64,000 nt of DNA from assembly GCA_028715985.1 (NCBI GenBank), contig JAQUQR010000001.1:125927-189926 (forward strand). Direction: 5' to 3'. Numbering within the stretch: position 1 is the stretch's first letter; every line of letters begins with the position of its first letter. This DNA is from Methanocellales archaeon. GTDB lineage: Archaea; Halobacteriota; UBA148. Under the pieces are notes generated by a model, which was not told the origin of the DNA, searched no databases, and saw nothing but the letters and a program-made list of their open reading frames with translations. The position numbers and the translations under genes were made by a program. Of the stretch, positions 3,800-63,964 are shown piece after piece.

Positions 3800-5101
3800 T
3801 CACCCCTCTAACTTCAGCCCATACTCATCCAATCGCTCTTTTGCGCGTTCCCGTCCCTCCTGATGCTCCCTCAAAAATTTAATCATTAGTTCTGCAGCGA
3901 GCGACTTGCAACTCCCGCAGGTGCGTTTACCCTCCTTACATTCAGTGAATATCTCTGCCATATGGGCATCATCCTCTATCAAATGGAAAAGCAACAGTTC
4001 ATAGACCGTACATTTTTGGGGTTCACCGCCCAATTTGCGTTGATCCGTTAGGGTCACCCGCCCTCCAGTCTTTGCTTTCTTAACCTTTTCCGCTGCAACA
4101 TCGGGGGATTCTGTGAGAGCGATTATGCTGTCGGGAGAGCTGCTCGACATCTTCCCTCCCGTCAGTCCGCTCATAAAGCGATGATATATAGAGGAAGGAA
4201 GGATTAACCCGTATCCACCATGCTCAATTTCCACGGCCCGTACAACCGATTCGATCTTCCTTACGTCTTTATTGTCATAAATGTCCACGTGCTCGGCATA
4301 AATTTTCACGTCACCCTCCAAGCTATCAGCTATTTCATACATTGCCTCTTTGTTAGGGTGCTTTGCCCTGACGCTAATGTAATCCTCGCGTTGTTCCACT
4401 TTGAACATCCTCATCCGGCTTGCTATGTCCCGCGTAAGTCTGATATGGGGGTCTTGGTCAAATCCTACAGGAATCACAACTGGTTTGGGTCCCCCATATG
4501 CCTTCAGCTGTGGATGGAGGATATCCGCGCTTTGAACAAGCGCACTTACCATATGTGATATATGGGTCTCGCCGGAAAAACCATAGATTGCGCTCATCTC
4601 AGAGAGATTTGCCTCTACACCTAACTCAAAGGCCAGATCTTTGACAAAGGTGTCTTTCGATTGAAAATAGATCCTACCATTCGGTTCAAATCCGAGTGCT
4701 ATCACGCTAAGGACATACTCGTTGATGCCCCTCTCAGTGCATTCTTTCCATGGGATCCCTCGCACGGCATGCGCCTCCATGTCAGCTATTCCGAAGAATG
4801 CGTCTGCGCCCATCCGTTGGTGCCATATGATCTCATCCATCACCATCTTATGTCCTAGGTGCACCGGACCGGATGGCATAAATCCGCTCATGACGCCGAA
4901 GGGCTGATTTGAATGCATCGCATCCAAAATGGGTTGATAATCGCGATGGCCAAAGATTATTTGCCTTCTCATGTATAGGTGTGGATTGGGCACCTCTGCC
5001 AACAGATCCCCGAAAGGGGATACGCCAAACTCATCAAATAACTTAGAATAATCTTCTATGAAATTCGTGCTCCATGGATTGAGCTTTATTTTCCGCATCA
5101 T
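3800..5101 (-). CDS. trpS: Tryptophan--tRNA ligase, archaeal type.
   Basis: Class I aaRS motifs PSGPVHLGH and KMSSS. Its 433 aa size and adjacency to endA are typical for archaeal TrpRS. Confidence 0.8.
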
Positions 5102-6144
5102 GGCTTGGCCCTCCCGATATCAATGTATTTTACCTTTTTATCCTTTATGTAAGCAAAGATCATCTGCTTTCTAACGCTCTGAGCAAGCCTTATGGCACGT
5201 GACATCTCAGGCAACAAAAATATGTGGTCCTCTGGAATCGCGTGTACCAAATATTCTGAGTGTTGTAACCTTTTCATAGGCTCTATTTTCTTATAGACAC
5301 GGAAGTGGCTTCCAAACTTGAAACCTGTCTTTACAACCATTCCCTTATTTCTCATGTCCTCGTAGATATTGAGTTTCCTTTTGAAAGTGGGCTCAATTTT
5401 GGTTGCAACCCCTGTGAATTTCCTTAGACTGAGTGCATGTCCACTTCGATCAACGATCTCGATGACCTTCTTTTTTAGCAAGTATGCAGATTCGACCAAA
5501 GATAATTGTAACCTCTCCTCTTGGAGCTTTCCGAAGAAGCCATTATGGTAAAGGAAGTGAGCCAGCTTTGAGTCAAATATCATGGCCCTATCCTCTAATA
5601 ATAGGGCCTCCTCTTTAACATGATCTACTGGCTTCATATCCCCTTTCATCATTGCCCTTTTGACCTCATAGAAAGTTACTTCACTTTCCTCGTCAACTAT
5701 CGCTAATAATATTCCTTTTCGTACATTTTCCGCGGTTTCCATAAGAAATGTCAGTTTTGCCAAGGGAAGGGGTTTTCGCTCTGATATCACATGCACAAAA
5801 TACTCCGCTGGGGTTTCACCGGGTCTTTTACCCCTCGGATATAATCGAAAATCGGTTGCGCTCGGCTGTACATGGTACCCCCTTTCCTTAAGGTCCTTGT
5901 AAACGAGGTATTTCAGTTCGAAATTTTCCATTCGCATGGAAGCTATCTTGAAAAACTCCGCAAAGCTCAGAACATGTTTATCTAAAGCGATGGTGATTTT
6001 TGCCCTTTCCAGCAGATATGATGCTTCTGTTAATGATAATTCCAGGGTGTCTTCTCTGGGGCGCCCATAGTAGCTGGAATCATATAGCTCTGTTAGGGCC
6101 TCACTACCTACTATGACCTTGTCACCTATCAATTCGCCGTTCAT
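5098..6144 (-). CDS. endA: tRNA-splicing endonuclease, long duplicated form (homodimer type).
   Basis: 348 aa two-unit architecture with a conserved C-terminal catalytic region. The 4-nt overlap with trpS is a conserved archaeal gene pair. Confidence 0.75.
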
Positions 6145-37291: not shown

Positions 37292-37366
37292 TGGGGTTGC
37301 TGAGACTTGAACTCAGGTCACGGCGACCCGAACGCCGAAGGATAAACCAGACTACCCCACAACCCC
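37292..37366 (-). tRNA. tRNA-Pro (anticodon CGG).
   Basis: Acceptor GGGGTTG/CAACCCC, anticodon stem CGGCG/CGCCG with loop TTCGGGT, and T-arm CTGAGTTCAAGTCTCAG. Confidence 0.75.
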
Positions 37367-56061: not shown

Positions 56062-56886
56062 TTACCTCCTGATAATATTTAATATTGCAAGAGTTGCTAA
56101 TATTGCCTCTTCTGTTCTGACAGTATCGGTCCCTTGATTTGGGATCGTGTTTATTATGTGGTCAGCGAGATCAGATAGGAGTAAGCCCTCTTCCTCCAGG
56201 ATGGTATCAAGTCCTCTATTTGGGGAGCCAAACGCAATCGAGATTTCCCCTTTCATCGCCTCTCTCAGCTTGGACAGCATTTTTACGTCCACGACTTCGC
56301 CACATTTGGACGTCGCAATAACCTTGGACTGTGCTTTCAGCGTTTCACCTAATGTCCCTGAGATGTGGGTTTGATACCCCCAATATAGTGGGATTTGATC
56401 CTTATCTGCTAATTTAACCTGCAATGGCCTTCGCGAAAATATTTTGACGGTTACACGCTCCCCCTTCTGCAAGATTTTATCTGTGCTTAAAGGGACTGGG
56501 CTTTTTATCCCGATATCAACCCAAGCGTTTTCGCCAGGTCCAACTTTGGTTACGATTCCTTCTCGAAATTCTCCTGTCTTAGGAGTTAGCAATGGATGGT
56601 GTGGAGTTCGCAGTGGTGGGATGACACCCACATATCTTAGCTCCTCGCTCAACGGAAACAACTGCTTACGCATGTACTGTGGTGTTTCTGCATACCTAAG
56701 CACCAGGTCGATGAATTTGCTGTCGTCGTACTCCGGATCTTTGTAGATTATGATCTTGCCCACCCGGAATATCGAGGCCGATCTTGCGATTTGTCCTACC
56801 TTGTATATCTTGATTCGTGGATCCCTACTCTCAGATGTCAGAGAGGAGGGTATCAGTATTGACAGATAGCACTGCATTGCTGTCAT
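56062..56886 (-). CDS. Predicted SPOUT-superfamily RNA methyltransferase (COG2106-like).
   Basis: 274 aa in the conserved archaeal position at the head of the L3 operon. Confidence 0.6.
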   Translation of the reverse strand: MTAMQCYLSILIPSSLTSESRDPRIKIYKVGQIARSASIFRVGKIIIYKDPEYDDSKFIDLVLRYAETPQYMRKQLFPLSEELRYVGVIPPLRTPHHPLLTPKTGEFREGIVTKVGPGENAWVDIGIKSPVPLSTDKILQKGERVTVKIFSRRPLQVKLADKDQIPLYWGYQTHISGTLGETLKAQSKVIATSKCGEVVDVKMLSKLREAMKGEISIAFGSPNRGLDTILEEEGLLLSDLADHIINTIPNQGTDTVRTEEAILATLAILNIIRR

Positions 56887-62096: not shown

Positions 62097-62735
62097 TTAA
62101 GATCCAATCTGGCAAGACTCAAACCATTCGACGTTTAACAGGGTCTTATGGATTTTTTTGATACGTTCCTTTGGTCCCTCTATTAAGAATGTTGAGGAAA
62201 GCTCCCCCTTTTCCTTATTTATTTCTAAAGTTATCAACTTATATTTTTTCACTCCGTTTTCTTTTAAAACTGCGATTATCTCTTTTTCGTCAATTATTTT
62301 ATTCGTACACACAACTATTTTTTGTTGGTAGGAGCCTATCCCTTTTTTAGCAAGAATTTGGTCAAATAGGATGACCACCCAGATTATCATATAGAGATTA
62401 AACCCAATCCGATACTGCCCAAGGCCAATAATGAGACCTAAAATTGCAAATAACCAAATACTGGCTGCTGTTGTGAATCCAAAAATTTTATCGGTAGTTC
62501 TTATTAATGCACCAGCACCTAAGAATCCAATACCTGTTACGATGGCTCCAAGTAAAGGAAATGGATTAGTAGAGTCTACATCCATTGCTATTATTGCTAA
62601 AGCACAAGAGCCCGCAGATACAAAAATGAAAGTGCCAAATCCGATTGGTTTATGGGACCTCTGCCTTTCTAGACCAAATATTAATGCCATTATGAAGGTG
62701 ATAGTTAGTCTTAAGATTATTATGGAAGTTTTCAT
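62097..62735 (-). CDS. mgtC: MgtC/SapB family membrane protein.
   Basis: MgtC N-terminal TM domain (LERQ motif region), 212 aa. Confidence 0.75.
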   Translation of the reverse strand: MKTSIIILRLTITFIMALIFGLERQRSHKPIGFGTFIFVSAGSCALAIIAMDVDSTNPFPLLGAIVTGIGFLGAGALIRTTDKIFGFTTAASIWLFAILGLIIGLGQYRIGFNLYMIIWVVILFDQILAKKGIGSYQQKIVVCTNKIIDEKEIIAVLKENGVKKYKLITLEINKEKGELSSTFLIEGPKERIKKIHKTLLNVEWFESCQIGS

Positions 62736-62784
62736 GGTGATTCCCCTTTCTGTAGAACTATTTAAAGTTATTTAAAAAAGGAGG

Positions 62785-62864
62785 TTTGCACCTAAAGTCG
62801 GTTTTGACCTTAAAGTCGGGAGTCTGACCCTAAAGTCGGGATTCCTCCCTACTTTAGGTGCAAA
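62785..62864. repeat. Composite repeat element: a 14-bp perfect inverted repeat (tttgcacctaaagt / actttaggtgcaaa) enclosing three tandem copies of the (g)acCyTAAAGTCGG repeat.
   Basis: Direct repeats at 62788-62801, 62806-62820 and 62826-62840, with the inverted arm at 62851-62864. The element lies in the mgtC upstream and lipoprotein upstream divergent region. Confidence 0.65.
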
Positions 62865-62935
62865 GCTCATTAAAGGAAAAGATTTATTAGCTAGATTAAT
62901 AGATAAAAAGAAGTATAAATAAGGAGAATTATTCC

Positions 62936-63277
62936 ATGGAAGAGCCCATAAAAATAGGGTGACGAAAGTTCCTCAAATCTCTTGCTATTGCCGGTGCAGT
63001 AGCAACTATGGGGATTTCTGGATGTATGTCTTCTCCAGAGACTACACCAGCCACAACACCTACACCAAGACCTGCAGCAGAGCCAACGCCGACATCAAAA
63101 ACTACAACTAAAGAATTTACAGAAACTAAACTCTGTCCAAAATGTAAGAACAACTACATGGTCCTTCAAGACAAAAACGGTGTACTGTGGTGGGTGTGTC
63201 CTGATGCTGCATACTGTGGATACACTGAAAAAGTAACTGAGCCAGAAATTTTGAGAAAGTATGGTTATACAAATTAA
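62936..63277 (+). pseudogene. Tat-signal lipoprotein with a PT-rich linker and C-terminal Zn-ribbon. It is interrupted by an in-frame TGA at the first Arg of the twin-arginine motif.
   Basis: An AAGGAG Shine-Dalgarno lies at 62921-62926 and the ATG at 62936. The frame reads MEEPIKIG-TGA(62960-62962)-RKFLKSLAIAGAVATMGISGC... Changing TGA to CGA would give RRKFLK. The downstream ORF (63008..63277) carries CPKC...CPDAAYC. Confidence 0.5.
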
Positions 63278-63392
63278 ATCACATCGATTAAAAGTTGTAA
63301 ATCACCAACATCAAGACGGCTCTTTTTATAGGATTCAGTATCTCGTTATATGTTACATTACTATAGGAACAGATTAGTTTATACCATATCTA

Positions 63393-63515
63393 ACCTCATA
63401 AACCAGAAATCCTCACCTAAAAGAGCCTTTAACCTCTTTCTTTGACCTTAACTCATGATACTCGCACTCAGGGCAAACAAACTCGTCGAGGATGAATTCC
63501 AGGTCAGCACCGCAA
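63393..63515 (-). CDS. Mini Zn-ribbon protein of 40 aa downstream of archease.
   Basis: Manual translation gives MKKECPNCGADLEFILDEFVCPECEYHELRSKKEVKGSFR. It is below the ORF-track cutoff. Confidence 0.4.
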
Positions 63516-63541
63516 TTTGGGCATTCTTTCTTCATAAGCTC

Positions 63542-63964
63542 TCATATATCAAGGAGTACTTGAGCGATCCACATCCCATCGATCTGCTTGATTTCCATGC
63601 TGTGATACGTGCAAGCCTTTACATCTGTCTTCGTTATATGCTTAGCCGGATCGATGGGCTCACCTGAAACTTTTGCGCTAAGCCTCATCTGATTTTCATC
63701 TATCCGAACGTCAAATCTGGAGAAAGCGAGACCCTCAGCATCGACGTAGAATAGCAATTCGTTAAGCCACTCGAACATCAATGATTTTAAATCCTCGCCC
63801 TGAACCTTTATCTCTTTCACCACTATTGACTTGACGTTCTCAGTATCGATTATGACTTCAAACATCGCCAGGGCAGCATTGGCAAAAACCTCCTCTAAAG
63901 TTCTTCCATAGGCTTTGAAACATATGTCTGCTGTAGCAAATCCCAGAAACTCAAATTTTTTCAT
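63542..63964 (-). CDS. Archease (RtcB activator).
   Basis: MKKFEFLGFATADICFKAYG N-terminus and 140 aa length fit the archease family. Confidence 0.8.
   Translation of the reverse strand: MKKFEFLGFATADICFKAYGRTLEEVFANAALAMFEVIIDTENVKSIVVKEIKVQGEDLKSLMFEWLNELLFYVDAEGLAFSRFDVRIDENQMRLSAKVSGEPIDPAKHITKTDVKACTYHSMEIKQIDGMWIAQVLLDI

Follow-up and report, generated by a model that had tools for sequence, protein, structure and literature searches.

Can a lipoprotein gene whose export motif contains a stop codon still deliver a product, or is it a relic? The question is raised by positions 62936-63277 of a 64,000-nt stretch of DNA from a Methanocellales archaeon, hereafter the window, in which a first-pass annotation had recognized a Tat lipoprotein gene with an in-frame TGA in place of the first arginine of its twin-arginine motif. 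The window as a whole has 42.8% G+C and contains an archaeal ribosomal-protein cluster and four tRNAs. Inside that cluster, an Rfam scan gave a match to the L4-Archaeoglobi ribosomal-protein leader (43.2 bits, 56444-56537, minus strand). A tRNA-Pro(CGG) predicted by ARAGORN at 37292-37366 (minus strand) is absent from the Rfam scan at gathering thresholds.

A Tat lipoprotein frame interrupted in its export motif

The elements described in the first-pass annotation are all present on the plus strand. An SD sequence, AAGGAG (62921-62926), lies 9 nt before ATG 62936, from which the frame reads ATG GAA GAG CCC ATA AAA ATA GGG TGA CGA AAG TTC CTC AAA, or MEEPIKIG-stop-RKFLK. The eight codons of MEEPIKIG (62936-62959) form the N-terminus, the TGA (62960-62962) takes the place of the first arginine codon, and the frame after it reads RKFLKSLAIAGAVATMGISGC. 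The rest of the signal peptide (62963-63025) consists of RKFLK, an h-region in which the reading continues SLAIAGAVATMGISGC, and the lipobox ISGC (63014-63025). The mature lipoprotein (63026-63277) begins with a Pro/Thr linker, followed by a four-cysteine ribbon (63134-63217) with its CPKC (63134-63145) and CPDAAYC (63197-63217) knuckles and by a C-terminal TEPEILRKYGY, and the frame closes at the terminal stop codon, 63275-63277. A Tat motif requires two arginines; as encoded, the first of them is a TGA.

With arginine restored, the peptide passes the NCBIfam model TIGR01409 (TAT_signal_seq; 21.5 bits against a cut-off of 16.7) and stays below threshold for Pfam PF10518 (TAT_signal; 17.9 against 22.7). 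The orthologue P0015, named by NCBI as a twin-arginine translocation signal domain-containing protein, reaches 18.9 bits against TIGR01409. A homologue search with the hybrid peptide, its stop read as arginine, returned 13 proteins, all from Methanocellales or ‘Halobacteriota’ MAGs and none with a Pfam domain; 12 are full-length, covering 95-96% of the query at 52-88% identity. G-R-R-x-F-L-K stands at the aligned position in 13 of 13, and the combination GRRxFLK...SGC is carried by all 12 full-length proteins. In the alignment, G8, R9, R10, F12, L13, K14, the glycines and alanines of the h-region, G29 and C30 vary little or not at all. The lipobox cysteine, whose I-S-G-C fits the pattern [LVI][ASTVI][GAS]-C, is invariant in 14 of 14 aligned sequences, and the four cysteines of the ribbon and the C-terminal TEPEILRKYGY are conserved. 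Because the frame passes TIGR01409 and aligns with 12 full-length homologues over nearly its whole length, its Tat motif is more than a chance match, and the assignment to a Tat lipoprotein gene with a stop for its first arginine stands. A second match to the relaxed pattern [RK*][RK*]xF[LIV]K, found among the six frames of the window, is noise, in a stretch interrupted by stop codons. No tat genes lie within the window.

The interruption has left its mark on gene calls. The window's list of open reading frames holds only the 89-aa remainder from ATG 63008, and NCBI calls an 83-aa hypothetical protein (P0014) from ATG 63026. An exact look-up of the 89-aa product returned no record.

An AlphaFold2 model of the family, built on 14 sequences, averages a pLDDT of 62, with about 71-83 over the C-terminal 50 residues, which form four short strands and a helix. 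Its best Foldseek matches in the PDB are zinc-finger and zinc-ribbon proteins, all non-significant (best E = 0.26). The CPKC and CPDAAYC pairs are conserved, and Pfam Zn_ribbon matches fall below threshold. The family would best be viewed as a small metal-binding domain that is exported by Tat and anchored by a lipid.

Homologues carry arginine at the interrupted codon

Five reference genomes supplied 22 related signal sequences, in which we read the motif codons. At the first twin-arginine position the codon is AGG in 15, CGG in 3, CGA in 2, CGT in 1 and AAG (lysine) in 1, so that 21 of the 22 loci encode RR, one encodes KR and none has a stop. The two CGA cases are the closest to the window: GGG CGA CGA AAG in locus L003 and GGA CGA CGA AAG in L015, against GGG TGA CGA AAG here, a single C>T transition from arginine.

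No paralogue or orthologue compared has a stop at the twin-arginine site. One protein, P0010, had appeared to begin beyond the RR motif; its DNA (ATG AAG ATA GGA AGA CGT ATG TTC) encodes MKIGRRMFLK, and the gene caller had chosen an internal ATG. Apart from this gene-call artefact, we saw no orthologue that starts at the downstream ATG, an arrangement that would have spoken against the first-pass reading. The expectation of CGA in orthologues is borne out in L003 and L015, with CGG, CGT and AGG elsewhere. With an arginine codon in the homologues and CGA one step away, the explanation of the first-pass annotation that finds most support is a recent nonsense mutation, which would have made the gene a pseudogene.

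The gene joins two Tat lipoprotein genes

Base matches change type along the gene. At 62936-62965, 26 of 30 bases match the genes for cytochrome-b5-domain (cyt-b5) lipoproteins in L003 and L015, against 15-21 of 30 for zinc-ribbon genes; at 63056-63115, 59 of 60 match the L003 zinc-ribbon gene, against 16-18 of 60 for the cyt-b5 genes. The MEEPIKIG codons differ from those of L003 at two bases, both synonymous, and together with the SD and about 60 nt upstream they match the 5′ ends of cyt-b5-domain Tat lipoprotein genes (PF00173, E = 2.9e-18), whose N-termini read MEEPIKIGRRKFLK in L003 and MEEPIKLGRRKFLK in L015. The 5′ region (62875-62935, plus strand), made up of a BRE/TATA-like AAAGATTTATTAG and the SD, aligns with the upstream regions of these same cyt-b5 genes, and the region upstream of ATG 62936 cannot be aligned with those of zinc-ribbon genes. 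By archaeal consensus, AAAGATTTATTAG is a putative promoter. The nearest relative of the mature part is L027 (P0001), with about 95% DNA identity from the lipobox to beyond the stop codon; upstream of the lipobox, L027 is unrelated to the window and begins with MKMGRRRFLK.

Windowed identities switch from cyt-b5 to zinc-ribbon type somewhere within 62966-63025, in the common h-region. Judged by these matches, the gene is a hybrid of two Tat lipoprotein genes, with a cyt-b5 5′ part, a zinc-ribbon 3′ part and one switch point. In L003, the signal-coding segments of the two donor genes have 81% identity across 90 nt and agree for at most 16 consecutive nt. They lie on the same strand 2939 nt apart, a geometry that gives a deletion. 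Recombination between two such segments would account for the hybrid.

The signal itself is widely shared in these genomes. In L015-L024, a near-invariant Tat-lipoprotein signal, (M)KIGRRKFLKSLAxAGAxATMGxSGC, precedes unrelated mature domains, among them cyt-b5, zinc-ribbon and Cys-rich ferredoxin-like-looking domains. Because its two copies in L003 are 81% identical in nucleotides, it looks like a common cassette that may be able to recombine. Paralogues of the zinc-ribbon type (L001-L010, L027:330-424 and L028:700-832) have a common upstream element, approximately GGATAACGGGGCGAAAAAC..CTGGAGATAAC...GAAAGCTTTATAT, with a BRE/TATA-like box 35-45 nt before the ATG. In L011, L013 and L014 this element recurs just past the stop codons, an arrangement suggestive of tandem paralogues. 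The hybrid gene of the window lacks it.

Genes are missing between MgtC and archease

The hybrid lies between two syntenic anchors. On its left is an MgtC-family gene (62097-62735, minus strand; PF02308, E = 1.3e-24), with 86% identity to its counterpart in L015 and about 84% to that in L002; on its right is an archease gene (63542-63964, minus strand; PF01951, E = 1.2e-45), whose orthologues stand beside the zinc-ribbon gene in L001, L002 and L027. We compared gene order across L001, L002, L003, L015 and L027. L002 has MgtC, a methyltransferase, a PAS gene, a CPBP/Rce1-like gene, the zinc-ribbon gene, a glycosyltransferase-like gene and archease. L003 has the cyt-b5 lipoprotein gene followed by methyltransferase, PAS, CPBP and zinc-ribbon genes, and L001 has PAS, CPBP, the zinc-ribbon gene and archease. 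L015 runs from MgtC through three inserted ORFs to the cyt-b5 lipoprotein, methyltransferase, CPBP and archease genes. The window has only MgtC, the hybrid and archease. Neither the window nor the next 4 kb beyond it contains the cyt-b5 domain or the methyltransferase, PAS or CPBP gene. In the relatives, then, the genes missing here are bracketed by the two donor genes, both pointing the same way, and the outer flanks are kept. The hybrid structure had escaped the first-pass annotation, and it places the stop codon in a locus that is already losing genes.

The interval between MgtC and archease varies among the relatives themselves (L015:1060-3000 and 4675-5525; L002:595-894). In UBA148 (L015), the three extra ORFs separate MgtC from the cyt-b5 gene, archease is not preceded by a zinc-ribbon gene, and the CPBP gene is recovered as three overlapping tblastn segments, possibly disrupted; the SAG AM-311-A10 (L002) lacks the cyt-b5 gene altogether. 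Downstream of archease in the window, the NCBI record calls a small 40-aa zinc-ribbon ORF (63413-63535, minus strand) with two CxxC pairs (MKKECPNCGADLEFILDEFVCPECEYHELRSKKEVKGSFR) and only sub-threshold Pfam zinc-ribbon matches.

Where MgtC and the hybrid diverge, the intergenic region contains a repeat array (62781-62862), with three direct copies of C(C/T)TAAAGTCGG at 62791, 62809 and 62829 and one inverted copy at 62848-62858, framed by GCACCTAAAGT...ACTTTAGGTGC plus GGAGG...CCTCC. The repeat has six matches in the window, a number reached by none of 100 shuffles. A related array (ACTTTATGTGCAA, three copies) occupies the same place after MgtC in the SAG locus L002. The array may be a putative regulator-binding array for mgtC.

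The stop codon recurs in a separate assembly

Because the source is a metagenome-assembled genome and the junction sits in sequence repeated among paralogues, the TGA or the junction could be a sequencing or assembly artefact, the true genome having CGA or two separate genes. Against this, a separate assembly gives the same unbroken sequence: Logan contig L030 (SRR22315507), whose reads are possibly those of the MAG, matches the window with 100% identity between 62764 and 63419, an interval that takes in the TGA as well as the junction. Four NCBI protein accessions, from three contigs of differing lengths (0.2-1 Mb), also have the truncated 83-aa call; from these gene calls, rather than from DNA, we infer that sister MAGs carry the same stop. 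With L003 standing in for the ancestor of this genome, the longest identical run between the repeats is 16 bases, shorter than usual assembly k-mers. An intact 113-aa version was found neither among about 15 billion proteins nor in the 90% cluster of the 83-aa product, and a metagenome scan returned only two distant loci and no second copy from the window's population. We conclude that the TGA at 62960-62962 is probably real DNA. The sequencing error first offered as an explanation has thus become unlikely, and an artefact of any of these kinds extremely so.

Could the interrupted gene still be expressed?

If the TGA is real, a product might still be made in two ways. The gene could have been re-purposed, the eight-codon remnant being translated up to the UGA and a signal-less zinc-ribbon protein of 89 or 83 aa being made in the cytoplasm by reinitiation or an independent start at ATG 63008 or ATG 63026. 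The downstream ORF is indeed intact and conserved: over the mature part, dN/dS against L027 is 0.17, with 12 synonymous and 8 non-synonymous differences. Moreover, ATG 63026-63028, just past the lipobox cysteine, is peculiar to the window (GTA or ATA, for valine or isoleucine, stands there in relatives), and NCBI annotates the 83-aa product, though this call is a mere gene-caller fallback. Direct reading finds no convincing SD before either ATG, however, and the nearest downstream ATG is 45 nt beyond the stop. At its start the product would also have what is left of the lipobox and then a long Pro/Thr linker suited to an extracytoplasmic tether, and every homologue has a signal peptide. We consider this route unlikely.

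The other way is to read through the UGA, whether by a near-cognate tRNA (Trp, Cys or Arg) at a low level or by programmed recoding, either of which would still yield some full-length Tat lipoprotein; selenocysteine insertion would be its extreme version. A general change of code is ruled out by stop-codon usage: of the 69 open stretches in the window that reach 150 codons or more, 38 terminate in TGA, and since it is the commonest stop of long ORFs, UGA is not a sense codon in this genome. The window's ORF list likewise shows no systematic interruption of other genes by single stops, the same-frame pairs being adjacent genes or antisense shadows. UGA followed by C is regarded as a weak termination context in bacteria and eukaryotes, and a W-R motif would not be expected to act as a Tat signal. 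Here the base after the UGA is C and the rest of the hybrid ORF is undamaged, both of which would favour readthrough. In yeast, near-cognate readthrough of UGA does insert a little Arg, after Cys and mainly Trp (82%; PMC4150775), and because Trp dominates, leaky decoding would rarely restore RR. Reviews list demonstrated recoding in Archaea only for selenocysteine, pyrrolysine and one -1 frameshift (PMC8211752, PMC8037382). The site itself argues in the same direction: all homologues have Arg rather than Cys or Sec, none of the compared relatives shares the stop, a SECIS hairpin search of the 3′ UTR (63275-63415) found folding no better than in shuffled sequence (z = +0.93), and an Rfam scan of 62650-63560 gave only noise, with no match with an E-value below 0.9 in a database that may hold no archaeal SECIS model. 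On these grounds we reject selenocysteine, as the first-pass annotation had been inclined to do for this lineage, seeing no obvious SECIS element, and regard readthrough in general as very unlikely. In a more specific form, the UGA would be deliberately leaky, a near-cognate tRNA (Arg-UCG or Trp) reading GGG-UGA-C at a low rate so that export of the lipoprotein is throttled rather than abolished. A downstream ORF that appears to be under purifying selection and the apparent fixation of the stop in several MAGs are compatible with such leakiness, and if it were true this would be the first archaeal programmed UGA readthrough to involve neither Sec nor Pyl, but we give it next to no credence.

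A probable recent pseudogene

We therefore favour, with good though not full confidence, the reading that a deletion produced this hybrid Tat lipoprotein gene, that its twin-arginine motif carries a CGA>TGA nonsense mutation, and that it is most likely a recent pseudogene. Between MgtC and archease, the ancestor would have had a directly oriented pair of Tat lipoprotein genes separated by about 2.9 kb: a first gene for a cyt-b5-domain lipoprotein (MEEPIKIGRRKFLK...) and a second for a zinc-ribbon lipoprotein (MKIGRRKFLK...), with signal segments about 80% identical. Recombination between these segments would have removed the cyt-b5 mature domain, the methyltransferase, PAS and CPBP/Rce1-like protease genes and the 5′ end of the zinc-ribbon gene, so that the promoter, SD and N-terminus of the cyt-b5 gene became joined in frame to the mature domain of the zinc-ribbon gene. 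Before or after this deletion, a single C>T transition (CGA>TGA) would have replaced the first arginine of the motif. Translation from ATG 62936 would then end after eight residues and yield no exportable lipoprotein, and the hybrid gene has presumably lost its function. Related genomes have 4-5 zinc-ribbon paralogues each, so one copy would be dispensable and its loss unsurprising.

What speaks against a pseudogene is the lack of decay past the single stop: the ORF is otherwise undamaged, and the mature part retains every conserved residue, including the invariant Cys, Trp, Glu and Tyr. Given this conservation and the low dN/dS, either the stop is recent relative to the divergence from L027 or the product is still in use; an undamaged ORF fits a very recent event and a product still used equally well.

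Relation to known systems

Twin-arginine signal lipoproteins of Halobacteriota have been described for haloarchaea. The window gene resembles them in its G-R-R-K-F-L-K (with arginine restored), h-region, I-S-G-C and Pro/Thr-rich tether, and differs from them in that its first Arg codon is TGA, so that the signal cannot be made as encoded. Its mature domain, a zinc ribbon followed by TEPEILRKYGY, belongs to no Pfam family and has no significant structural match. As in CGA>TGA nonsense pseudogenes, the window is one C>T change from the orthologous Arg codon, the ORF is otherwise intact and there are several paralogues per genome; its peculiarity among them is that the stop falls at codon 9, inside the export motif, leaving almost all of the ORF open and a shortened protein still called.

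Haemoglobin Lepore is the textbook deletion-fusion gene formed by recombination between direct repeats of paralogous sequence. The hybrid here is similarly built, its 5′ part coming from one paralogue and its 3′ part from the other, in frame, with the intervening DNA lost and the flanking synteny kept. What sets it apart is that the repeat is only the signal segment of about 90 nt of otherwise unrelated genes, that the whole mature domain is swapped, and that we infer the recombination from the comparison of loci. With archaeal selenoprotein genes the locus shares an in-frame UGA in a conserved ORF of a methanogen-related archaeon, but the site is Arg in homologues, no SECIS-like hairpin was found, and the affected residue belongs to an export motif rather than being a redox residue.

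The locus is thus an ordinary event of a known kind, with no bearing on a long-standing open question unless readthrough is demonstrated. Its main consequence is for annotation: what four NCBI records list as an 83-aa ‘hypothetical protein’ is the tail end of a Tat lipoprotein gene that has been disrupted, and these entries should carry a pseudogene label. For the lineage, an almost invariant Tat-lipoprotein signal, with about 80% nucleotide identity, is common to genes with unrelated mature domains, and this locus suggests that the signal segment can act as a recombination substrate through which genes are deleted and mature domains swapped.
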